A stretch of 32,883 nt of DNA from a virus (taxonomy: Duplodnaviria; Heunggongvirae; Uroviricota; Caudoviricetes), in IMG/VR virus record IMGVR_UViG_2802429220_000015; one strand, 5' to 3'. Under the pieces are notes generated by a model that worked only from the letters and a program-made list of their open reading frames with translations, did no database searches and was not told where the DNA came from. Shown here in pieces: positions 817 through 10,410 of the stretch (positions are counted from its first letter, which is position 1; every line of letters starts with the position of its first letter). The translations under genes were made by a program, and so were the position numbers.

Positions 817-1053
817 ATGATGGTTAGAAATGAAGTAATGAACAAAGACTGGCACCGCGAGTACATCGTTGCCGCTGTGCACACCAAAGGTTTTACATTG
901 CGTGAACTTTCTGAACGCGCTGGTCTAAAAAAAGACTCTTTAAAAAATGCACTGTATCGCTCATGCCCTAAATATGAACGCATCATAGCCGATGCTATTG
1001 GTGTGGAACCTGCGGAGATCTGGCCAAGCCGGTATGCCAGTAAGGCGGCGTAA
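817..1053 (+). CDS. ner: Ner-like DNA-binding early regulator
   Basis: 78-aa product starting at the internal ATG of track ORF 574..1053 (MMVRNEVMNKDWHREYIVAAVHTKGFTLRELSERAGL...), resembling the Ner/Nlp family; lies directly upstream of the transposase and its stop overlaps the MuA start. Confidence 0.85.
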   Translation: MMVRNEVMNKDWHREYIVAAVHTKGFTLRELSERAGLKKDSLKNALYRSCPKYERIIADAIGVEPAEIWPSRYASKAA

Positions 1054-3095
1054 TGTTTTATTCAGCCAATGAGCTGGCCGGTCTTCCTGGTTTGCCCGGT
1101 ACAGTTCAGGGGGTGCGCTGGACGCTCAATCGGATCACAGATACGCACCCGGAATGGAAGCGCAAGCGCGAAGGCACCAAAGCATTCGAGTATCACATCG
1201 ACTGCCTGCCCGCTGAAGCGCAGAAAGTTTTACGTAAGCGCCTGACCCATCAGGTTCTGGAAGATGCACAACTGCCCGCCGTGGTTGAGCAGAAGGCAGT
1301 TAAAAACGTCGCCGTTCGCGATGAACTGGAAGTGATGGTCAAATGCCCGGAACTGGCATTACGCGAAGTCCAGGCACTGACCGACAAGCAAAAGGCCATT
1401 GCTGATGCGCGGATATTGCTGGCTACTGAAGTGCATAAACTGCGTGAATACGCCGGAATGACCAGGAAGGCCGCGTTAAAGCACATCGTTGATGGTGTGC
1501 GCATGGGGGCGTTGCCTGACCGCATTATCGAAGCAGCGAATACTGCAAATGCACGTCAGGGAAAGCGAACCGGTGTCAGCACCGGCAGCCTGGATAGCTG
1601 GTACTCCAGCTGGGTGATGGCGCGCGGTGATGCCAATCAGTTACTGGCGTTACTGGCTCCCGGTCATCATAAGGGAACACCGTGGGAGCAGGTCTGGTGG
1701 TTGAGCGATTTCTTTATGTTCTATCGCTCATGGAAGCGCCCGACCGTTGAATATGCGTATCGCGAGTTTTCAGCCTGGTGGCATGAGAAGCACGCGAACG
1801 ATGCGGGAATGCTGGCGGCACTGCCTTCCGTTCACGCAGTAAGACGGGTATTAAGCAGTGTCCCGGTGATTGTTAAGGAGCGTTTCCGCTCCACCGGTTC
1901 AGCCTGGCGTTCGCTCAATCCCTTTGTGCGACGCGACTGGAGCACATTACCGGTTAATGCGGTATGGGTCGGGGATGGTCACTGTATGAAACTGATGGCA
2001 TTCAGCCCTGCCACCGGGAATACATTCCGGCCAGAAGTGACGCTGGTTATGGATGCAGGACAACGCTTTATTGTGGGCTGGTCGCTGTCCCTGTCGGAGA
2101 ACGTGGTGGCCGTTGCTGATGCATTGCGTCATGGCATGTCACAACACGGAATACCGCTGATTTATTACTCCGATAACGGGGGCGGTGAAAAAAACCGGGT
2201 GCTTGATGCCGATATTACCGGGATTTTGCCCCGGCTGGGTGTGGAACATCACACGGGGATACCAGGTAACCCGCAGGGGCGCGGGGTAATAGAACGGGCA
2301 AACAAAGGAATACCCAAAGATGTGGCTCTGAGTTTCCAGACGTACTGCTCAAAAAATGCAGACAAGGAAACGGTGATGATGCAGCAACGCATCACACAGT
2401 CAGCCATTAAGGCCACCCACAAAGGGAAGGAGCTGACAAAGCGGCAGGTTAAAGCAATGGGAGAAGTCCCCACCTTTGAGCAATTGATGGCCGCAATAGA
2501 GCTGGAGGTAAAACGGTATAACAACCGCCCACACAGCAGCCTTCCCCGCAAAGAGGATGGCGAACATTACAGCCCGGCAGCGTATCGCCGGAAACTGATA
2601 AAAGAGCAGAAAGCTGAAATCGACATGCTGTCGCCGGAAGAACTTCACGAAATGTTCCGACCGGAAAGCATCTGCACAGTGCGACGCGGTGAAGTGGTGT
2701 TATTCAGAAACATCTATTTCTCCACAGAACTGGCAGCAGAGCACGGAAATGAAGTCAGGGTTTGTTACGACATTCACGACGCAAACAGCGTGATTGTCAG
2801 GCGGATGGACGGTTCTTATATCTGCGATGCCATCTGGAACGGTAACAAGGTTGATGCGTTCCCTAAAGCTGTTATCGAACAACAGCAGGAGAAACGCACC
2901 AGAGGCCGCATTGCACGGGCCGCGCAGAAAATCGAAGAGGCTAAACGCGAGCTTACTCCGGCTATTACGCAGAAACCTGACTTTAATTTTGGATTTGGTC
3001 TGGAGCGCCCGGAGAAAAAGGAAAAAGAAGAACTTTATTTATTCGCATCTGAACGCGAACGCAATTTAAAGAAAAACGGCACAAACAACCGTTAA
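1053..3095 (+). CDS. MuA-like DDE transposase
   Basis: 680-aa product; N-terminus MFYSANELAGLPGLPGTVQGVRWTLNR... is typical of Mu transposase A; size and position (after ner, before the B ATPase) match Mu. Confidence 0.93.
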   Translation: MFYSANELAGLPGLPGTVQGVRWTLNRITDTHPEWKRKREGTKAFEYHIDCLPAEAQKVLRKRLTHQVLEDAQLPAVVEQKAVKNVAVRDELEVMVKCPELALREVQALTDKQKAIADARILLATEVHKLREYAGMTRKAALKHIVDGVRMGALPDRIIEAANTANARQGKRTGVSTGSLDSWYSSWVMARGDANQLLALLAPGHHKGTPWEQVWWLSDFFMFYRSWKRPTVEYAYREFSAWWHEKHANDAGMLAALPSVHAVRRVLSSVPVIVKERFRSTGSAWRSLNPFVRRDWSTLPVNAVWVGDGHCMKLMAFSPATGNTFRPEVTLVMDAGQRFIVGWSLSLSENVVAVADALRHGMSQHGIPLIYYSDNGGGEKNRVLDADITGILPRLGVEHHTGIPGNPQGRGVIERANKGIPKDVALSFQTYCSKNADKETVMMQQRITQSAIKATHKGKELTKRQVKAMGEVPTFEQLMAAIELEVKRYNNRPHSSLPRKEDGEHYSPAAYRRKLIKEQKAEIDMLSPEELHEMFRPESICTVRRGEVVLFRNIYFSTELAAEHGNEVRVCYDIHDANSVIVRRMDGSYICDAIWNGNKVDAFPKAVIEQQQEKRTRGRIARAAQKIEEAKRELTPAITQKPDFNFGFGLERPEKKEKEELYLFASERERNLKKNGTNNR

Positions 3096-3113
3096 TTTAA
3101 AAGGTATTTAATT

Positions 3114-4007
3114 ATGAGTTTAATTACGCAATTAAATGACGTAATGGCCCGTCGCGGCTATACGCAGACCCACGTCGCCCGTGCTATTGGTCGTAGCAGC
3201 GCCGTTATCAGCCAGTATTTGCAGGGTAAATATCAGGGCGATATGTCTGATATTGAAGAACGCATTTCTGCCTTTGTGACCCGTGAGCGGGAAAAAGAAA
3301 ACAGCCGCCGTATTAAAGCAAAGTTTGTGACCACCGGTATGGCTGCCAAAGGACTGGAGGTGCTGGCCTACGCTCACCTGGAATGTGAAATCTGTGTGCT
3401 GTATGGCGCAGCAGGTCTTGGCAAAACAATGATTCTGCGTGAATACGCCGCCAGAAACCGGGATGCGGTCCTGATTGAAGCCGACCCGGGCTATACAGCC
3501 AGAACACTGCTTGAGGAGCTGTGCCGCCAGCTGGGGGTAAAAGTTCGCGGCAATATCCACGAACTGATTGATGCATGTGTGCGAGAACTGCGTGATTCCG
3601 GTCGTCTGCTGATGGTGGACGAGGCTGAACTGCTCCCCTATCGCGCACTGGAGGTTCTGCGCCGTCTGCATGACAAAGCGGGTATCGGGGTTGTTCTGGC
3701 GGGTATGCCTCGCCTTCTGATTAACCTCAAGGGGCGTCGTGGTGAGTTCGCCCAGTTATACAGCCGCGTGGCGCTGGCGCTTAACCTGGGCGATACGTTG
3801 TCGCAGGAAGATTTTAACCAGATAGCTACCGGGTTGATGCCGGAAGCAGCAGAGCCGGAAATCAGCGAGGCGCTTTATACACGTTCGCTGGGTAATGCCC
3901 GCCGTCTGTTCAAGCTGGCGCGTGGTGTGTACCGGATTTGTGATATCAGCGATGCGCCGGTCAGTGTGCAGGCCATTGATAAATTCGCAGAAATGTTAAT
4001 TCACTGA
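3114..4007 (+). CDS. MuB-like ATP-dependent target DNA activator (AAA+ ATPase)
   Basis: 297-aa product with N-terminal HTH-like segment and Walker A motif GAAGLGKT; immediately downstream of the transposase. Confidence 0.9.
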   Translation: MSLITQLNDVMARRGYTQTHVARAIGRSSAVISQYLQGKYQGDMSDIEERISAFVTREREKENSRRIKAKFVTTGMAAKGLEVLAYAHLECEICVLYGAAGLGKTMILREYAARNRDAVLIEADPGYTARTLLEELCRQLGVKVRGNIHELIDACVRELRDSGRLLMVDEAELLPYRALEVLRRLHDKAGIGVVLAGMPRLLINLKGRRGEFAQLYSRVALALNLGDTLSQEDFNQIATGLMPEAAEPEISEALYTRSLGNARRLFKLARGVYRICDISDAPVSVQAIDKFAEMLIH

Positions 4008-4246
4008 TGGAGAACAAGACGATGGACAAGCAGACCATTAACGCCGTCCGTTCCCGTGCCCGTGTGGCCATCCACACCACTGGTGGTCGTGTAACGGGAC
4101 AACATCACCGTTTACCTGTGGTTTATGCCTGCCCGCCCGTGGGTGGTCCTGTATGGCCGGTAACGGAAATCATCCAGACATTCAGCGGCCTGCGCCGCGT
4201 GGTTAAAACGTCCTGTATCGACGGCTGCACCGTCGTATGGCAATGA
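4007..4246 (+). CDS. Hypothetical early protein
   Basis: 79-aa ORF; start overlaps the MuB stop (TGATGG); no recognisable motif. Confidence 0.4.
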   Translation: MENKTMDKQTINAVRSRARVAIHTTGGRVTGQHHRLPVVYACPPVGGPVWPVTEIIQTFSGLRRVVKTSCIDGCTVVWQ

Positions 4247-4258
4247 GAGGAAATCAGA

Positions 4259-4474
4259 ATGGCGGTCAAGTTAGAAGTAATTATCTATACCGATGAAAAC
4301 GGTACGCTTCGTGTCAGGAGCATGGGGGCTGTTGATAAAAAAGGATTTACGGATGAAGAGGTCGGAGTAAGACAACGGTTATGGGAGGTAATGAATCAAA
4401 CTCTTAATAAAGAATTTAACGGCGTTGATTTATTTTCTGTTGGCGTGGAACCCTGCGCGCAAAACACACATTAA
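4259..4474 (+). CDS. Hypothetical early protein
   Basis: 71-aa ORF preceded by GAGAGGAAA Shine-Dalgarno-like sequence. Confidence 0.5.
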   Translation: MAVKLEVIIYTDENGTLRVRSMGAVDKKGFTDEEVGVRQRLWEVMNQTLNKEFNGVDLFSVGVEPCAQNTH

Positions 4475-4503
4475 TTTGTAAATATCACTGAGGTAATTTA
4501 ATT

Positions 4504-5148
4504 ATGACGACTGAAAATAAAGTTAAGCAATACACGAAAACTGAAGCGCCTGAAGGTTACTGGGTGGATGCCCGTGGCGTAATGACACCTGAAAGTCTTA
4601 TCAAAGATATTGACCGCGACCGTGAGCAGCTGGTCGGTGAGCTTGTGGAGATGGTGATTGCTGCCTCCGCCTCACTGCGTGAACTGAAACTGCGTGCGTT
4701 TGGTGATATTCAGGCGTTTATTGACCTGTCGGCGGAGAAATACGGCGCTGTGAAAGGCGGTAAAAAAGGGAATATCACGCTTTACAGCTTTGACGGGCGT
4801 TACAAGATTCAGCGCGCCATGCAGGACCGTATCGCGTTTGATGAACGCATTCAGACCGCGAAGTCGCTGATTGATGATTGCCTGGCTGACTGGACGGAAG
4901 GTGCACGTCCTGAAATAAAAGCCATCATCAGCGAAGCATTCAGCACGGACAAGGAAGGCAACATCAACACCGGGCGCGTTCTGGCTCTGCGTCGTCTCGA
5001 TATTACGGAGGAGCGCTGGGATAACGCCATGAAACTGATTGGTGAAGCCGTCCAGGTGGTTGGCAGCAAAAGCTATATCCGCGTGTATGAGCGCGTCGGT
5101 GATTCCGACGAATACCGCGCAATCCCGCTTGATATTGCAGGGGTTTAA
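4504..5148 (+). CDS. Conserved Mu-like early protein, possibly DUF3164 family
   Basis: 214-aa ORF with clean start; family assignment is from memory of Mu-like prophage early proteins, not from a search. Confidence 0.55.
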   Translation: MTTENKVKQYTKTEAPEGYWVDARGVMTPESLIKDIDRDREQLVGELVEMVIAASASLRELKLRAFGDIQAFIDLSAEKYGAVKGGKKGNITLYSFDGRYKIQRAMQDRIAFDERIQTAKSLIDDCLADWTEGARPEIKAIISEAFSTDKEGNINTGRVLALRRLDITEERWDNAMKLIGEAVQVVGSKSYIRVYERVGDSDEYRAIPLDIAGV

Positions 5149-5149
5149 C

Positions 5150-5383
5150 ATGCATCAGGATATCAAAGAGTACAGAGCCGGAAATAGTTGCGCGGCGTAT
5201 TCGCTGGGCGCGTCCAGAGCAGAACAACGCGGCGATTATGCCGAGGCTGAAAAGTTGTGGCGTAAGGCAGCGCAAAGCCCGTGTAGCACCCTGCGCCGCA
5301 TCTGGGCTGAACATCGTGCGGAGTTCTGCGCTAACGCTCACCTGAAGGGATGGAGGCCACGCCATGAATGCGAAGAACTTTAA
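5150..5383 (+). CDS. Hypothetical small protein (weak resemblance to PerC-like regulators)
   Basis: 77-aa product from the internal ATG of track ORF 5039..5383 (MHQDIKEYRAGNS...); segment GDYAEAEKLWRKAA loosely recalls PerC-family proteins. Confidence 0.4.
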   Translation: MHQDIKEYRAGNSCAAYSLGASRAEQRGDYAEAEKLWRKAAQSPCSTLRRIWAEHRAEFCANAHLKGWRPRHECEEL

Positions 5384-5555
5384 TAAGCAGTATCCGCCAG
5401 GGACTCGCTTCATGCACACGGCACATCCGGCGTTGCGCGGTGGCCGGGTGGTGAAAACCGTTGCACCGGCCAGAGATTTTAAATGTGGTTGTGTGGTTGA
5501 AATTAATGTCGAGCCTTATTTCGTAAAAGTCGAAACACTGAAAGCAGCGCATTAA
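5364..5555 (+). CDS. Hypothetical small protein
   Basis: 63-aa ORF overlapping the end of the previous gene. Confidence 0.4.
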   Translation: MNAKNFNKQYPPGTRFMHTAHPALRGGRVVKTVAPARDFKCGCVVEINVEPYFVKVETLKAAH

Positions 5556-5585
5556 TTTAATTCGTTTTTAATTGTTATTTAAAAC

Positions 5586-5623
5586 AGGCGTAAACCCGCC
5601 GGGGCTGGCTTACGCCTGAATCT
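5586..5623 (+). repeat. Intercistronic stem-loop element, copy 1 (GGCGTAAACCCGCCGGGGCTGGCTTACGCCTGAATCTG)
   Basis: 38-nt sequence identical to 6663..6700; stem GGCGTAA/TTACGCC, then CTGAATCTG, then RBS and the start of the 5630 gene. Confidence 0.8.
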
Positions 5624-5629
5624 GGAGAA

Positions 5630-6022
5630 ATGAAAATGAGCGTTACCGTTATCAATGAAATGCTTGGGTGTAAATTCGATAAGGTGTTTACGAATCAAAG
5701 CGCCGAACTTGTTTTTTGTGGTGAACGCCATGGGGATGGCTGGGGTGTTGTATTTACGTTTTTCCACTTTCAGGAATGTTGTGAAAACGTCTGGATTGAA
5801 GACATTGTTGGCGACCTGACAGACCTGGAAGGAGCTGTTCTCACCGAAGCGGAAGTTGTAACTGAATCCAGTGATACAGAAAACGGTAGCCAGACGTGGT
5901 CATTCTTTAAGTTCGGGACATCAAAAGGTTGTGTCGTTGTCAGATGGTGCGGTGAAAGTAATGGTTTTTATTCCGAGCGAGTTTCGCTGAAGCAGCAATT
6001 AACTGACGTTCTGGATTTTTAA
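5630..6022 (+). CDS. Hypothetical acidic, Cys/His-containing protein (accessory)
   Basis: 130-aa ORF; visibly more AT-rich than flanking genes; acidic stretch EDIVGDLTDLEGAVLTEAEVVTESSDTENG. By my base counting the ATG is at 5629 and there is a 1-nt mismatch with the track frame; track coordinates used. Confidence 0.55.
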   Translation: MKMSVTVINEMLGCKFDKVFTNQSAELVFCGERHGDGWGVVFTFFHFQECCENVWIEDIVGDLTDLEGAVLTEAEVVTESSDTENGSQTWSFFKFGTSKGCVVVRWCGESNGFYSERVSLKQQLTDVLDF

Positions 6023-6043
6023 TTCTTATTCATGACTTTTTAT

Positions 6044-6073
6044 GCCGCAGGTAAACAGGTCTGCGCCTGAATC
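6044..6073 (+). repeat. Intercistronic stem-loop element, degenerate copy (CGCAG-GTAAACAGGT-CTGCG + CCTGAATC)
   Basis: Shares GTAAAC in the loop region and CGCCTGAATC with the two 38-nt copies; followed by AAGAGGA and the ATG at 6088. Confidence 0.6.
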
Positions 6074-6087
6074 AAGAGGATTTGTAT

Positions 6088-6633
6088 ATGAAAGATAAAG
6101 TCTGGGATTTTATTGTTACTCCTGAAGGTTTTGCTACCCGTTCATCTGAGAAATTAACCAATGTAACGTTATGGGCGTCATCATTGCTGGGCCATCTGGG
6201 AGCACCTGCCGATTTTATGCATGTGGTACTTGATGCGCAGATTGCCGGAAATGCTGTGGCCAGTAAGGGGGCTTATATTCAGGGGGATTTGTTCGCCATG
6301 ATGGCGAATGACACAGCAGCGCTGTATATCGCCACACGGAACATGCTGACAAGAATATCCATGCTGTCTGACTGTAAGGATATGGAAGACCTCGCATACA
6401 TCCTTGAAGATGATTTGCTCACTATTTCAGGTGTGCAGGAATCCCTCCCGCGTCAGTTGCGGTTTATTGACCTGATGGAGTCATATAAAGATAAGCCTGA
6501 TTTTTTTCAGATTCGATTCAGTGGAATGGAACTGCTGGATGAATATTATCCGCTGGATTCGATTTCCCGTGATGTGAAGGCGTTCGTAAAGTCTGTTGAC
6601 CGCCATTACCGGAAAGCTGAACGTCGTAGTTAA
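6088..6633 (+). CDS. Hypothetical protein (accessory)
   Basis: Track ORF starts at a TTG at 6082; the ATG at 6088 has AAGAGGA 7 nt upstream. AT-rich relative to neighbours. Confidence 0.55.
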   Translation: MKDKVWDFIVTPEGFATRSSEKLTNVTLWASSLLGHLGAPADFMHVVLDAQIAGNAVASKGAYIQGDLFAMMANDTAALYIATRNMLTRISMLSDCKDMEDLAYILEDDLLTISGVQESLPRQLRFIDLMESYKDKPDFFQIRFSGMELLDEYYPLDSISRDVKAFVKSVDRHYRKAERRS

Positions 6634-6662
6634 TAAGTCTGTTTTTAATTTTGTTTGTATAT

Positions 6663-6700
6663 GGCGTAAACCCGCCGGGGCTGGCTTACGCCTGAATCTG
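6663..6700 (+). repeat. Intercistronic stem-loop element, copy 2
   Basis: Exact 38-nt repeat of 5586..5623; followed by GAGGGA and the ATG at 6712. Confidence 0.8.
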
Positions 6701-6711
6701 AGGGATTCATT

Positions 6712-7440
6712 ATGGAAAATAAAAGCAAATATATCGCCAGAATTAAAAAACTGTTACGCCTTGCCAGAGGAACATCAAGCCCGGAAGAAGCCGCTAACGC
6801 TATTGCAAAAGCCCAGGCTTATATGCGCCAGCATGGTATCAGCGAAAACGACGCGGAATTGTTCGACATTCAGGAAGCTGCCAGCGCGGGTGCGCCGAGT
6901 GATGCCAGTACACCGCCGCGTTATATGCACATCCTGTGTGACCTGGTATGTAAAGCCTTCGGTGTCGAGTGTTACATCTCCGGTGAATACCGGGCTTCTG
7001 GTTCACTCAAACGTTACGTTCGTTTTTATGGTCCTGACAGCCGCCCGGAAATTGCGGCCTACGCGTTTGATGTGCTTTCCCGTCAGATGATGGCAGAGCG
7101 TAATCAATATCAGGATAAACACTGTAAGCGTTGCAAACCATCCACGCGGGTGGCCCGTGGCGACCAGTTCTGCGAAGGCTGGGTCTTTGGTGCCCGTGAT
7201 GTCATTGCGGTGTATGACGTCTCCCCGGAAGAAAAAAGCCGCCTTGAGCTTTACAGAGAAAACCTGCACAGGACTAAAGTGCGGCGCGACGGGGATATGC
7301 GCACAGCTAAAGCGTGTCGGGGTGCAGAGTTTGCCGCTACTGCTGGTTTTATCGCCGGGAAAAATGCCAGGTTGCATCAGGGGGTTAATGGTCAGAGCAA
7401 CAGGCCGCTGGCGCTGGGAGGGGATAACGATGGCTTTTAA
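6712..7440 (+). CDS. Conserved early protein, possibly DUF2786-like
   Basis: 242-aa ORF; N-terminal segment KYIARIKKLLRLARGTSSPEEAANA recalls the DUF2786 N-terminal motif (from memory). Confidence 0.55.
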   Translation: MENKSKYIARIKKLLRLARGTSSPEEAANAIAKAQAYMRQHGISENDAELFDIQEAASAGAPSDASTPPRYMHILCDLVCKAFGVECYISGEYRASGSLKRYVRFYGPDSRPEIAAYAFDVLSRQMMAERNQYQDKHCKRCKPSTRVARGDQFCEGWVFGARDVIAVYDVSPEEKSRLELYRENLHRTKVRRDGDMRTAKACRGAEFAATAGFIAGKNARLHQGVNGQSNRPLALGGDNDGF

Positions 7441-7657
7441 ACTTCTCAGTGTCACCGAAGCAATATACCAGCCGCCCGGAGAACGCCACGAATACAGGAT
7501 GAATGACGGTAGCGCGGCGGTTGAGTTTCCCAAATATCCGGGGGCTTCCCGGTGGCGGTTCTATGACAGTGCGGGACGCCGGATTATTAAAAGAACCGTG
7601 CACAACGCCATGAAAGCCGCTGTAGAACGTCACAAAAGAAGGTTTAACTGCAAATGA
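7430..7657 (+). CDS. Hypothetical small protein
   Basis: 75-aa product from the internal ATG of track ORF 7157..7657; start overlaps the end of the previous gene. Confidence 0.45.
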   Translation: MAFKLLSVTEAIYQPPGERHEYRMNDGSAAVEFPKYPGASRWRFYDSAGRRIIKRTVHNAMKAAVERHKRRFNCK

Positions 7658-7884
7658 ATATTGAATTTTATGACTACGGAGTCACCTCAAAAATCATTGT
7701 TACCTGCTGGTTCTGGGAGTTCCGTCGCTATTGCCGGGTTGTGGATGCGGCGTTGTTTGTGGCTCCTGAAGTGCGCCACCAGAGTGGCGGTGGCCTTTTA
7801 ATGAAAACCGTCATCACCGGTAAAACGGTCCCGATGTTACGGGCGTTTAAAGTGGCAAAACAGGAGGCTTGCAATGGTCATTGA
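7654..7884 (+). CDS. Hypothetical small protein
   Basis: 76-aa ORF; ATGA start/stop overlap with the upstream gene. Confidence 0.45.
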   Translation: MNIEFYDYGVTSKIIVTCWFWEFRRYCRVVDAALFVAPEVRHQSGGGLLMKTVITGKTVPMLRAFKVAKQEACNGH

Positions 7885-8164
7885 TAAAACGATAACGATC
7901 GATGTAGCCATGAATACAGGTCTGGCGCTTATCGGTTATGGCTATATCACTTTTATGTCATTCAGGTGGTTGATTTCTTCGTTCTTTAAGCAATGTGAAA
8001 AACGTTGCCGCAAAGACAAGCGCGTGAAGGCACTAAATGCGTTTAATGACGCTTTTGATATTGACCGTATGCAACAGGGAGACCCGGCACGCGTAATTAC
8101 CCAGGGAGATGTCGTGATTTTGGTATACCGGAGTGAAAAAAATGAACAGGAGGCGGCGCAGTGA
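7874..8164 (+). CDS. Hypothetical small membrane protein
   Basis: 96-aa ORF with one hydrophobic segment (GLALIGYGYITFMSFRWLISSFF). Confidence 0.45.
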   Translation: MVIDKTITIDVAMNTGLALIGYGYITFMSFRWLISSFFKQCEKRCRKDKRVKALNAFNDAFDIDRMQQGDPARVITQGDVVILVYRSEKNEQEAAQ

Positions 8165-8469
8165 ACCAGCAAACCAGAATAAGCGATAAGAGCCTGACCA
8201 GACTGATTGCCGATGCTGACAAAATGCTTGATATGCGCGGACCGATTGTAGACAGAGAGTGGTGGATGCTTTTACGGCAGTCCCTGGTTGAACTTCAGGA
8301 ACGCCGGAGTGCTGGAATCATTCCAGTGACGCTGAGAGTAAAGGAGCATCAGGTCAGAGAGCTGGTTAATCAGTTACGAGATGTGGCAATCAAATACCAC
8401 GGAACGCAGCAATTACGGGAGCGTATTGCAACAACAGTCATTTATTCAGAACTGGTTTCAGGGGAATAA
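8161..8469 (+). CDS. Hypothetical protein
   Basis: 102-aa ORF with GTG start overlapping the upstream stop. Confidence 0.45.
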   Translation: MNQQTRISDKSLTRLIADADKMLDMRGPIVDREWWMLLRQSLVELQERRSAGIIPVTLRVKEHQVRELVNQLRDVAIKYHGTQQLRERIATTVIYSELVSGE

Positions 8470-8473
8470 TCAG

Positions 8474-8656
8474 ATGAAAAACCGTAAGGCAAAAATTCTG
8501 TTAGCTCGCAGAAACGGTGTTGGGGTCTGGCGATGGTTGAGGATTAGTAACAGACGAGTGAGGTTGACGGGGTGTCGTGGTGTGATGGGGCACAGTTGTT
8601 GCAAAAAGCCCAGCGCGGCGCAAAACCGCTGGAAGAATCACACTAACGCAAAGTAA
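8474..8656 (+). CDS. Possible small basic protein
   Basis: 60-aa ORF from the internal ATG of track ORF 8381..8656, with AGGGGA upstream; composition rich in R/W/C, so it may not be real. Confidence 0.25.
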   Translation: MKNRKAKILLARRNGVGVWRWLRISNRRVRLTGCRGVMGHSCCKKPSAAQNRWKNHTNAK

Positions 8657-8723
8657 TTAAATAATAACCAATAGCAGACCAAAATATATGTTTTGGTCTG
8701 CCAAAAGCGATGTTTTGGTCATT

Positions 8724-9002
8724 ATGAAGATTGAACAAATCGGAATGGCAGCCTTCCGGCAGCAGGCTGAAAGCGGTGGCGTGGATGAGTTCGTCGTGCA
8801 GAGGTTCGGTGGTGTGTATCACCTCTTCGCTGTGAATCGCCGCGCTGGTGTGTCTTATTTTCTACAGGAACGCCGTGGCGATTACAAGACGTGGCTGTCT
8901 CTTGACCGTGCCGCCGCGTTCCTGTCAGGGATTGGCGTTTCACGTTTTACCGTGCGTTTTGAGGATAACAAACATGCTGAAAAAGATGATCGGAGCCATT
9001 AA
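8724..9002 (+). CDS. Hypothetical protein
   Basis: Track ORF begins at 8688, but that ATG lies in the loop of a strong hairpin (8674..8701); the next in-frame ATG (MKIEQIG...) is used. Start is uncertain. Confidence 0.4.
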   Translation: MKIEQIGMAAFRQQAESGGVDEFVVQRFGGVYHLFAVNRRAGVSYFLQERRGDYKTWLSLDRAAAFLSGIGVSRFTVRFEDNKHAEKDDRSH

Positions 9003-9372
9003 AGCCGGTCAGGCGTATCTGGGGTGGGATGATGTCCTTTATCGCCAGACGCTGGCCCGCCTGACCGGTAAAACCAGCACCACACGCTGCAACCTCGATG
9101 AACTGCGCATCATCCGGGAATACATGCACGAACAGGGATTTCCGCGCAAAGCACCCGCCGGTAAAGGTCGCCGCCCCCGTGTTGCAATGAGCAGAAAATC
9201 AGTATTATCCAAAATTGAAGCGTTGCTGGCTGATGCCGGTCGTTCCTGGGCATATGCAGAAGGGCTGGCATCTCACATGTATAAGCAACATGTGATCGAA
9301 TGGCTGACGGATGAACAGCTTTTTGGGGTAATGGTGGCGCTGGTTAAAGATTCAAGAAGGAGAAATCAATGA
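8974..9372 (+). CDS. gemA: GemA-like (Mu gp16-like) regulatory protein
   Basis: 132-aa product from the internal ATG of track ORF 8848..9372, with GAGGA upstream; segment YLGWDDVLYRQTLARLTGKTS matches my recollection of the GemA/gp16 family; position just before mor as in Mu. Confidence 0.65.
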   Translation: MLKKMIGAIKAGQAYLGWDDVLYRQTLARLTGKTSTTRCNLDELRIIREYMHEQGFPRKAPAGKGRRPRVAMSRKSVLSKIEALLADAGRSWAYAEGLASHMYKQHVIEWLTDEQLFGVMVALVKDSRRRNQ

Positions 9373-9848
9373 TGAAAAAATGGTTGTTTTGTTTAGTAGG
9401 GGTTATTTTCTCTTGTTCTGCGTTGGCTCAGACAGAGGAACAGGCGCAAAAGGAACTGAAACGTTATCAGGATATGAAACCACAGGTTGAGCAACTTCTG
9501 AGGGAAAGCCTGAAACTCTATTATGACATGCCAGACGCTGCATCAGAATATAATAACGGTAACCCTGAAAAATGGCGTAAGGTCATAACAGGCCTGAAGG
9601 AATTCGATAAACAAATAGAGAAAATTGGCGGTAATGGCTTCGATCCTGTTTATAGTTCCTGTGTAAATATGGGGATTCAACTACAGGATTACTGGTCTAA
9701 CGTCCTCGGCAACAACAAACAGTTTCTCGAGCGTTCCAGAAGTTTGTTTATACAGGATCGCATGGATTGCTTTGATCAATTCGTCTTTGGTAAAGAACGT
9801 ATAGAGGCCAGAAAAGACCTTGCCATTGTTAATGTCTGGGATGAATAA
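9369..9848 (+). CDS. Secreted or periplasmic protein of unknown function (moron)
   Basis: 159-aa ORF with N-terminal signal peptide (MMKKWLFCLVGVIFSCSALA-QTEE); strong AGGAG RBS; markedly AT-rich compared with the rest of the window; followed by an intrinsic terminator. Confidence 0.7.
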   Translation: MMKKWLFCLVGVIFSCSALAQTEEQAQKELKRYQDMKPQVEQLLRESLKLYYDMPDAASEYNNGNPEKWRKVITGLKEFDKQIEKIGGNGFDPVYSSCVNMGIQLQDYWSNVLGNNKQFLERSRSLFIQDRMDCFDQFVFGKERIEARKDLAIVNVWDE

Positions 9849-9853
9849 ACAGG

Positions 9854-9880
9854 AACCTCCGCAAACGCGGAGGTTTTTTA
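9854..9880 (+). terminator. Rho-independent terminator
   Basis: Stem AACCTCCGC / GCGGAGGTT with AAAC loop, followed by TTTTTTA. Confidence 0.8.
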
Positions 9881-9884
9881 TGAA

Positions 9885-9915
9885 CTGTACAGGCGATCAT
9901 GTATGGCTATAATAA
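9885..9915 (+). promoter_or_regulatory. Candidate promoter for the mor-like gene
   Basis: TATAAT hexamer at about 9908..9913 with no good -35; palindrome CTGTACAG at about 9885..9892. Confidence 0.4.
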
Positions 9916-9942: not shown

Positions 9943-10410
9943 ATGCAGACCTTCAGTGAAACAGATCTTCGCGATGCGCAGGTACTGCTGCCCGATTCCG
10001 TACAGCAACTGATTAGCGTGATTGGCTTCCCCGCCCTGACCCGGTTAATCCGTTCTTTTGGTGGCGTGACGTTAAGCGGTAAAACCGGCGCACACGCCGG
10101 ACGCACCGGCGGTGTCCATGCCCTGTTACATGACGTGCTGACCGAAGACGAAATCAACAAATTGATCCGCTTTCTTGGCGGTGCACCGTTTTACATTCCT
10201 CGTTGCGATCATGCGTTACGTGCCCTGCGTAACACCCGTTTTATGGCTGATTTACAGCAGCATGTAAAAGACGGATGCTCACACCGGCAGGCGCTGGCAC
10301 TACTCTGTCCCCGTTACGGGATTTCAGACCGGTACGCATGGCAACTGATACACCGACGACAAAAACAGACTTCGCTGAAAAGCCCCACCCAGGTGGGGCT
10401 TTTTGATTAA
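9943..10410 (+). CDS. mor: Mor/C-family transcription activator
   Basis: 155-aa product; segment RFLGGAPFYIPRCDHALRALRNTRFMADL aligns by eye with Mu Mor (KHLGGGQVYIPRGQALDSLIRDLRIWNDF, from memory); C-terminal HTH-like region. Confidence 0.8.
   Translation: MQTFSETDLRDAQVLLPDSVQQLISVIGFPALTRLIRSFGGVTLSGKTGAHAGRTGGVHALLHDVLTEDEINKLIRFLGGAPFYIPRCDHALRALRNTRFMADLQQHVKDGCSHRQALALLCPRYGISDRYAWQLIHRRQKQTSLKSPTQVGLFD
10379..10405 (+). terminator. Rho-independent terminator overlapping the 3' end of the mor-like gene
   Basis: Stem AGCCCCAC / GTGGGGCT with 4-nt loop, followed by TTTT. Confidence 0.7.

Follow-up and report, generated by a model that had tools for sequence, protein, structure and literature searches.

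The DNA analyzed in this study (hereafter the window) is the 32,883-nucleotide (nt) IMG/VR virus record IMGVR_UViG_2802429220_000015, a Mu-like prophage. We focus on a segment of its early region, positions 5556-6711, which contains two small plus-strand genes, ORF1 (open reading frame 1) and ORF2, together with repeated copies of a conserved hairpin. The segment is bordered by two plus-strand genes. On the left, a gene for a basic protein of 63 amino acids (aa) (5364..5555; isoelectric point (pI) 9.8; phrog_5591, PHROG match E 3e-40) is the last conserved gene before the hairpin, which it always adjoins in this prophage lineage. On the right lies a gene for a DUF2786/DUF7168 protein (6712..7440; Pfam E 1e-29 and 5e-13; phrog_421). 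The entire segment is 100% identical in E. coli RM9088, where the two products bear the RefSeq names "DUF7448 domain-containing protein" and "hypothetical protein". An initial annotation, made from the sequence, had placed the ORFs at 5630..6022 and 6088..6633. Both are real plus-strand genes; for ORF1, however, the alignment of homologues and the RefSeq annotation favor a start at 5636 (MSVT...) rather than 5630, so that the gene spans 5636..6022. As detailed below, the two genes are separate cassettes, present in some copies of the prophage and absent from others, at a site marked by the hairpin.

The same annotation described the genes as bracketed by copies of a conserved stem-loop, and this is borne out by two 67-nt direct repeats (family D1) and a degraded third element between the genes, all on the plus strand. 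Copy 1 (5558-5624; covariance model 71 bits, E 3e-19; -16.2 kcal/mol) consists of an AT-rich leader with TTAA/TTTAAA motifs, the hairpin GGCGTAAACCCGCCGGGGCTGGCTTACGCC at 5588-5617 (5587-5618 when the flanking A-T pair that closes this particular copy is included) and the tail CCTGAATCTG. Copy 2 (6634-6700, with the hairpin at 6664-6693; 69.9 bits, E 6e-19) is followed by the ribosome-binding site of the DUF2786 gene. The two copies are 82% identical, and a core of 43 nt, which includes the hairpin GGCGTAAACCCGCCGGGGCTGGCTTACGCC, is the same in both. The degraded element, termed SL-B (6032-6081, stem approximately 6045-6066), scores 11.5 bits (E 2.7), folds no better than shuffled sequence, and is followed by the tail GCGCCTGAATC, which it shares with the other copies, and the ribosome-binding site of ORF2. 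Intact counterparts of SL-B follow ORF1 in the related loci L003 (23.6 bits) and L005 (27.7 bits) and fold at -14 kcal/mol (z -3.3). The covariance model detected no further copies in the 32.9-kb window.

The accessory status of the segment is evident from a nearly identical prophage, the IMG/VR contig L017, which is 100% identical to the window over positions 1659-5624 and 99.6% identical over 6634-9907, and from which the 1076 bp at 5625..6700 (plus strand), comprising ORF1, SL-B, ORF2 and one hairpin copy, are absent. L017 contains a single 67-nt element that aligns to both copies in the window; the 1076 bp therefore represent an indel with its junction inside the identical core, and the window differs from this otherwise identical prophage exactly by a crossover within those 43 nt. 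An empty site is also found in E. coli 08-00022, where both flanks are retained at 100% identity, 80 nt apart.

The distribution of the two genes was then surveyed in 5426 complete E. coli genomes, 58 of which carry the prophage backbone. Ten of these possess both genes, 18 contain ORF2 only, at least two contain ORF1 only, and the rest have neither. In Salmonella loci, ORF1 is paired with other cassettes. Since either gene can occur without the other, ORF1 and ORF2 are two independent single-gene cassettes and not the one two-gene cassette of the initial annotation. Comparison of syntenic prophages, which that annotation had proposed as a check, thus agrees with the accessory nature of the genes: their presence varies among the genomes that share the backbone, and an isogenic empty site exists. 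The description of the genes as horizontally acquired and expressed early can be upheld insofar as they are accessory, are exchanged horizontally and lie inside the early operon, a position from which they would be expressed early. A megablast search of the early region against cultured phages gave no match.

The possibility that ORF1 and ORF2 form one functional pair, e.g., a toxin-antitoxin or an enzyme-partner module, is suggested by their adjacency, their common orientation and their joint loss from the isogenic prophage. Nevertheless, we consider it extremely unlikely, in view of their independent occurrence and the alternative partners of ORF1 in Salmonella, as well as the very different phylogenetic ranges of the two genes and the far greater divergence of the ORF1 alleles (synonymous divergence, dS, of ~1.1 vs ~0.05-0.2 for ORF2). 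An obligate two-gene or toxin-antitoxin module was rejected because strict co-occurrence was not observed.

As had been suggested from the sequence, the two ORFs are more AT-rich than the genes around them: their GC content is 43.9% (ORF1) and 45.6% (ORF2), whereas the window as a whole has 54.1% and its genes next to the cassettes 48-56%. Composition along the window is indeed not uniform, and the segment 5625-6700 (1076 nt; 44.4% GC) belongs to the lowest extreme, only 0.9% of equal-sized stretches being as low. Cassette overlaps aside, the other stretches of equally low GC are all located in the repressor/ner region (1-1086). Other small early genes are just as AT-rich (GC 41.7%, 44.3% and 40.8%), and the low-GC signal of the cassettes is therefore real but not unique to them.

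The first cassette, ORF1, codes for an acidic, all-beta protein of 128 aa, which is a member of the Pfam family DUF7448: it scores well above the gathering threshold of PF24240 (63.6 bits against a cutoff of 27; E 2.6e-17; profile positions 24-103 of 104) and has the common fold of the family. It also matches phrog_2650 (E 3e-32), and all of its 25 database homologues (25/25) carry PF24240. The AlphaFold2 model (pLDDT 87.5) is all-beta and matches the DUF7448 protein of Bacillus phage BigBertha in BFVD (E 7e-10, TM 0.70), as well as those of phiEF24C and Providencia phage PR1. The protein has a pI of 4.27, a net charge of -13, 6 Cys and 2 His residues, consistent with the acidic tract and Cys/His residues reported initially. 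In the family alignment, this acidic tract coincides with the conserved DUF7448 segment H-x-Q-x-C-C-E-x-V-W-I-E-D-I-x-G-D-L-x-D-L; a second conserved motif of the family is represented in ORF1 by R-W-C-G-E-S-N-G-Y-Y-S-E. The DUF7448 core is characterized by conserved His/Cys residues and RWCGESNGYYSE. The gene is under purifying selection, with a ratio of nonsynonymous to synonymous substitution rates (dN/dS) of 0.08-0.21.

Members of DUF7448 were identified by tblastn in 159 cultured phages, among them Bacillus Herelleviridae (including the SBSphiJ group), T5-like phages, Pseudomonas podophages and jumbo phages, with Bacillus, Pseudomonas and Sinorhizobium among the hosts. Most members reside in large virulent phages (Herelleviridae, T5-like and jumbo phages), and the Mu-like prophage setting constitutes a minority. 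The gene is always found among small unannotated genes, which in T5-like phages form the tRNA/small-ORF region, and no recurrent partner gene was observed in its contexts in T5-like, LUZ24-like and Bastille-like phages and two metagenomic contigs. In the library searched, no paper was found that names DUF7448. It had been stated that neither product resembles a Mu early protein; no Mu early homologue was indeed found, yet ORF1 belongs to a family that is widespread in virulent phages. Between E. coli prophage alleles (the window vs L003 and L005), the dS of ORF1 is ~1.1, while the backbone is ~95% identical and the dS of ORF2 is 0.04-0.2. Judged by this synonymous divergence, the ORF1 alleles are much older than their present neighbors.

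The second cassette, ORF2 (6088..6633), codes for a protein of 181 aa that is predicted to be all-helical and matches phrog_7741 (E 9e-122). Its description as Asp/Glu-rich was overstated, as the protein is only mildly acidic (pI 5.07, net charge -6). Like ORF1, it is under purifying selection (dN/dS 0.19-0.45). No match to ORF2 was found in Pfam, NCBIfam, PADLOC or PDB, and tblastn against 50,697 phage records also gave none. Relatives in a set of 5.8 billion clusters are confined to E. coli, at 85% identity or more, and an exhaustive, profile-free comparison with 1.84 billion proteins returned only its own cluster, one fragment and two repeat-driven artefacts. Matches to a Gram-positive adhesin and to a low-complexity protein were rejected as such artefacts; WD40 matches of the ORF2 profile were likewise rejected, since no stretch passes alone and the signal is driven by a KVWD motif. 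A Salmonella family that occupies the same slot shares ~25% identity with ORF2 overall, a value that rises to 38% in the C-terminal 68 residues. ORF2 is a lineage-restricted near-orphan of E. coli and Salmonella with a predicted helical structure.

Two rearranged forms of ORF2 were also observed. A 173-aa E. coli protein (P0046) joins the first 95 residues of ORF2 to a C-terminal portion derived from a DUF1804 protein; the DUF1804 gene of the window is located ~6 kb downstream, which suggests a large internal deletion in a decaying prophage. In the second cassette of L082 (IMG/VR 2778261572_000005), an unrelated 123-aa ORF shares the 5' untranslated region and the first six codons (MKDKVW) of ORF2, which points to a crossover just inside the coding sequence.

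The slot between the 63-aa gene and the DUF2786 gene is highly variable. Among 84 related loci, the length of the spacer ranges from 80 nt (empty) to 1356 nt, and in other prophages the slot is filled by at least 15 unrelated gene families; counted directly behind the hairpin, there are more than 15. The occupants include DUF7448, ORF2 and its distant Salmonella relative, and unrelated proteins of 60, 59, 88, 125, 71/149 and 53+150 aa. In other genera, the genes behind the hairpin code for a 142-aa family, a zinc-binding protein, an HD phosphohydrolase, GemA and a Lar-like restriction-alleviation protein. The latter (104 aa, L046 from position 2538 onward, IMG/VR 2890520432_000008) scores 27.5 bits with PF14354, just below the cutoff of 28.6, and matches phrog_599 (E 8e-8); it is the sole occupant with an anti-defence-type annotation. 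In L092 (Photorhabdus cinerea) and L094 (Xenorhabdus ehlersii), the gene behind the hairpin codes for a 178-aa HD-type deoxyribonucleoside 5'-monophosphate phosphatase (phrog_318, E 5e-79), indicating that the slot also takes nucleotide-metabolism genes. The 63-aa protein itself weakly matches phrog_19503 (E 2.7e-4), a family that includes the 71/149-aa proteins often located behind the hairpin (L028, L039, L051 and L063); on the basis of this match, paralogues may flank the hairpin on both sides.

In four loci the number of hairpins equals the number of cassettes: three hairpins accompany three cassettes in L023 and L005, and two accompany two in L080 and L031. In all five ORF1 loci examined, a hairpin is located 3' of ORF1, its E. 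coli form being of the diverged SL-B type (24-28 bits). All of the junctions have the 9-nt sequence CGCCTGAAT in common. In the Salmonella-type locus L031 (6340-6450), the last ~30 nt of the 63-aa gene, the leader and the hairpin are duplicated downstream of a 188-aa distant relative of ORF2, and this looks like a footprint of the copying of the hairpin unit.

The hairpin was identified by pattern search in 82 IMG/VR contigs. In 80 of these 82 loci, a homologue of the 63-aa protein, with identity as low as 36%, ends 30-32 nt upstream of the hairpin, and the distance from the hairpin to the next start codon is 16-21 nt, whichever gene comes next. Its wider distribution was assessed with a covariance model built from diverse copies, in an unbiased sample of 80 loci from different species found via the DUF3164 protein. 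The hairpin is present in 32 of the 33 enterobacterial-type loci (32 named Enterobacterales and one contig named Martelella alba) and in none of the 47 loci from Pseudomonas, Burkholderia, Haemophilus and other taxa. It is also present in the cultured phage VW-6B, and phage Mu carries a homologue (33.7 bits, E 2e-7) between gam and gp11 (Mu_11), at AF083977 ~6356-6411 (L170 2857-2912), in the sole sizeable intergenic gap of the early operon, where it bears no annotation. The Mu copy has the same AT-rich leader and CCTGAA tail, and its outer stem contains two compensatory base pairs: GGCGTAA/TTACGCC is replaced by GGCGCGA/TCGCGCC in Mu, and by GGCGTGA/TCACGCC in Pantoea. Among 32 diverse copies, double-sided changes occur in 6 of the 11 pairs, a value reached by none of 500 column shuffles (0/500) and by no slid register. 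Rfam yielded no credible match to the hairpin (best 22 bits, against thresholds of 40-105; E of at least 0.26), and the few literature searches made, on Mu early-operon hairpins, Mu-like anti-defence hotspots and DUF2786, returned no description of the genes or the hairpin. Two candidate identities were rejected: a host repetitive extragenic palindromic (REP)-type element, as the element is found only in the 58 genomes that contain the prophage backbone, and a promoter in the AT-rich leader, as no conserved -35/-10 elements and no scan match were found.

With respect to transcription, a consensus sigma-70 scan revealed no promoter-like sites on the plus strand between 4611 and 8637, and hence none inside the cassette segment; a consensus scan for terminators gave matches solely within coding sequence, in about the number expected by chance. 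Given the lack of a predicted internal promoter, the plus-strand orientation, the spacing and the Shine-Dalgarno site in front of each gene, the simplest reading is that ORF1 and ORF2 would be transcribed early, from the early promoter Pe, together with A, B and kil.

The strand on which the hairpin would act was considered in this context. In the plus-strand orientation, the alignment contains 14 G.U cells and 3 A.C cells, whereas the minus-strand RNA folds better in 25 of the 32 copies (mean -17.2 vs -14.9 kcal/mol). The G.U counts thus favor the plus strand and the per-copy folding favors the minus strand, and no firm assignment to either is made. No U-tract follows the stem on the plus strand, and transcription is therefore expected to read through. 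The near-invariance of the stem and loop across genera suggests sequence-specific recognition.

One interpretation, which we regard as a serious possibility somewhat short of even, is that the hairpin serves as punctuation of the plus-strand early messenger RNA (mRNA), with an RNase E-type cut in the AU-rich leader and the hairpin as a stabilizer of the 5' or 3' end, or else as a translational operator that is recognized by its sequence and sets the expression of the gene behind it; the cassettes would then merely exploit a permissive, pre-equipped expression slot. The fixed geometry relative to the preceding stop and the following start codon, the one-to-one relation of hairpins and cassettes in four loci, the covariation, the excess of G.U over A.C cells, the missing plus-strand U-tract, and the restriction to enterobacterial-type loci of an element with no counterpart in Rfam are all consistent with such a role. 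It fits less well with the better folding of the minus strand in most copies, with the modest energy z-scores of the plus strand (-2.0 to -2.6), or with a degree of sequence conservation in the stem and loop that exceeds the need of a mere stabilizer.

The folding of the minus strand raises a second option, namely a leftward intrinsic terminator that would keep antisense transcription arising in the AT-rich variable DNA out of the transposition genes and the immunity region. The minus-strand stem is longer and more stable, with 14 uninterrupted pairs in several copies, and in many copies it is followed on that strand by A-UUUUU-AAA, the reverse complement of the conserved TTTAAAAAT. This option appears unlikely, however: the U-tracts of copy 2 in the window and of the Mu copy are poor, the genes to the right are all on the plus strand with no leftward transcription unit in evidence, and the hairpin was not flagged by the consensus terminator scan. 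Moreover, sequence conservation between genera is unusual for a terminator, and at least nine independent changes that create G.U pairs on the plus strand would create A.C mismatches on the minus strand.

A third option is a site that acts at the DNA level, as a single-stranded or cruciform (attC-like) target of recombination or protein binding that would actively capture cassettes. In this respect, each promoterless cassette adjoins an imperfect palindrome, the junctions all carry CGCCTGAAT, both strands fold, and the L031 cassette is flanked by the duplicated 3' end of the 63-aa gene and hairpin. Against this, the early genes in 4007-7440, to which the scan was confined, gave no match to a recombinase family in Pfam or PHROG, no GTTRRRY-type core was seen at the junctions read by eye, and three loci with a single cassette (L006, L009 and L011) lack a second hairpin. 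Since ordinary homologous recombination over the 43 identical nt fully explains the indel in the window, we consider active capture decidedly unlikely.

Taken together, the account we favor, and to which we attach a moderate degree of confidence, is that ORF1 and ORF2 are two swappable early cassettes in a hairpin-marked slot, with products that act on host or competitor proteins. The slot is a hypervariable site in the Pe operon of an enterobacterial Mu-like prophage, extending from the 63-aa gene to the DUF2786 gene, and its mark is the conserved hairpin (~30 nt) with its AT-rich leader. In the window, a copy or a diverged copy of the hairpin parts each cassette from the next gene, whose start codon lies 16-21 nt further on. 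Cassettes are gained, lost and swapped through recombination in the repeated hairpin/CGCCTGAAT sequences. Both genes would be read early after induction or infection, along with A, B and kil. Their products are small soluble proteins under purifying selection, and each may, on its own, bind a protein of the host or of a competitor during early lytic growth and so serve host takeover or counter-defence. From the position of the genes, their accessory pattern, the Lar-like family in the same slot and the weak likeness to an immunity protein, we infer that binding to such a protein is the likeliest role; direct involvement in the replication of Mu is less probable. The weak resemblance in question is to the small toxin-immunity protein PIM7 (PDB 8owu_E), with another to the uncharacterized Neisseria protein 5v77.

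Several observations weigh against this account. Duplication of the hairpin is not obligatory, as the single-cassette loci mentioned above demonstrate, and the early co-transcription of the two genes is deduced from sequence features alone. The AlphaFold2 model of ORF2 is unreliable (pLDDT 47), even with the Salmonella relatives added. No PADLOC, NCBIfam or PDB sequence match gives either protein a function. Indeed, beyond the DUF7448 and PHROG families, function searches in Pfam, PHROGs, NCBIfam, PADLOC and PDB (by sequence and profile), together with a Foldseek comparison of ORF1 with PDB, returned nothing, and even at E values up to 1 PADLOC gave no match for the two cassette products or the two anchor genes. 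Finally, DUF7448 is conserved in phages of Gram-negative as well as Gram-positive hosts, and some of its charged and Cys residues are invariant; this could equally indicate an enzyme, a metal or ligand binder, or a protein that handles nucleic acids, instead of an inhibitor specific to one host.

The initial annotation had called the acidic character of the products compatible with inhibitors of restriction or CRISPR systems that act as DNA mimics; Ocr, ArdA and AcrF2 are proteins of this type. The charge of ORF1 (net -13 over 128 aa), its probable early expression and the presence of a Lar-like restriction-alleviation family in the same slot are compatible with this idea. The acidic stretch WIEDIVGDLDDL, however, is predicted from the model to form part of the buried or conserved beta core of DUF7448, rather than a surface array on a helical rod, and ORF2 is not unusually acidic. 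Neither sequence nor fold similarity to a known DNA mimic or anti-CRISPR (Acr) protein was detected, including no structural match to the solved DNA mimics. In addition, no regulator of the Aca type with a helix-turn-helix (HTH) accompanies the cassettes, and the neighboring phrog_5591 and DUF2786/DUF7168 proteins give no HTH match. The breadth of hosts of DUF7448 speaks against a target peculiar to one host, although a generic target would be compatible with it. On balance, the proposal is not supported, and we rate it as highly unlikely.

A more far-reaching version of our account would combine two claims: that the hairpin is a dedicated, sequence-recognized signal which defines an integron-like "plug-in" slot, and that DUF7448 broadly inhibits an immune or stress pathway conserved in bacteria. 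The hairpin may then be an RNA operator, or a single-stranded DNA recombination site exposed during replicative transposition, such that any gene behind a hairpin copy may be captured and expressed early, and DUF7448 may serve as a sponge or binder via its His/Cys-RWCGESNGYYSE pocket. We regard this combination as distinctly unlikely.

Among known systems, the closest architectural analogue of the favored arrangement of swappable cassettes is provided by the PeSL cassettes of T4-type phages, in which a short, conserved intergenic stem-loop motif recurs around non-essential, orphan-type genes of a hyperplastic region (Arbiol et al. 2010, PMC2839356; Comeau et al. 2014, PMC4122927), and recombination between the repeats yields the insertions, deletions and replacements that set near-identical phages apart (PMC2839356). 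Like PeSL, the present locus has a repeated intergenic stem-loop, with the indel junction inside the 43-nt identical core. Unlike PeSL, which is described as having a strong sigma-70 promoter, a working terminator and many copies per genome, the hairpin has no predicted promoter and no U-tract on the sense strand, and it occurs in one to three copies at a single locus, in the same syntenic position across enterobacterial genera and Mu. Accessory regions have also been described in Mu-like phages of Pseudomonas (Cazares et al. 2014, as cited in bioRxiv 10.1101/2024.10.15.618418).

The cassettes also resemble morons and the hotspots of temperate phages, in their deviant GC content, their presence or absence among close relatives, their fixed slot and their mostly function-less annotation. 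Classical morons reportedly bring a promoter and a terminator with them, and their expression in the lysogen is common. The cassettes, by contrast, lie inside the early lytic operon and have no transcription signals of their own in the consensus scan, and the locus is therefore not a classical moron. Nor is it an integron, since the junction core CGCCTGAAT, read by eye, is not of the GTTRRRY type of attC and the scanned early genes 4007-7440 gave no recombinase match. The position within the operon and the small, tightly packed genes are as in the semi-essential early region of Mu (kil, gam, the E-genes, gemA and mor). Unlike Mu, however, the prophage carries DUF3164, ANR and 63-aa genes where Mu has E5-E8 and gam, and neither ORF1 nor ORF2 has a Mu homologue.

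The surrounding prophage is organized as follows. The repressor is coded on the minus strand (1-663) and all of the remaining genes on the plus strand, in the order ner, transposase, MuB, kil (phrog_2679), small early genes, Mor activator, holins, endolysin and late genes. The Mu-type transposase (680 aa; 1053-3095) is intact in the window; MuB is located at 3114-4007 and the Mor activator at 9943-10410. RM9088 (NZ_CP042298 2077355-2092510, L001), the sole complete E. coli genome with a 100% identical cassette, harbors a disrupted prophage, with two IS1A copies, one of them within the transposase gene, and an ISEc12 further to the right; the window, accordingly, is either a separate, intact copy or derives from another genome. 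The gene at 5150-5383, upstream of the 63-aa gene, is named in RefSeq as an ANR family transcriptional regulator (an Aar-like negative regulator of AraC) and has weak TPR-like matches in Pfam; a regulator of the ANR type is unexpected in a Mu early operon. At the beginning of a 104-aa ORF, a perfect palindrome of 14+14 nt (8674-8701) and a 20-nt direct repeat (8679-8698 and 8701-8720) overlap, and the region 8672-8720 was scored as terminator-like on the minus strand.

The existence of the same prophage with and without the 1076-bp segment (the window vs E. coli 08-00022 and IMG/VR contig 2718217859_000011) provides a clean natural experiment. Variants with only one of the genes are available as well, so that what each gene contributes to induction, burst size or host range is directly testable. 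ORF1 links the widespread, uncharacterized DUF7448 family to a tractable E. coli system. Should none of the above readings hold, the locus would be an ordinary accessory-gene hotspot. If, on the other hand, the hairpin controls expression or recombination, it would explain how genes can be added to the early region of transposable phages without upsetting a packed operon.

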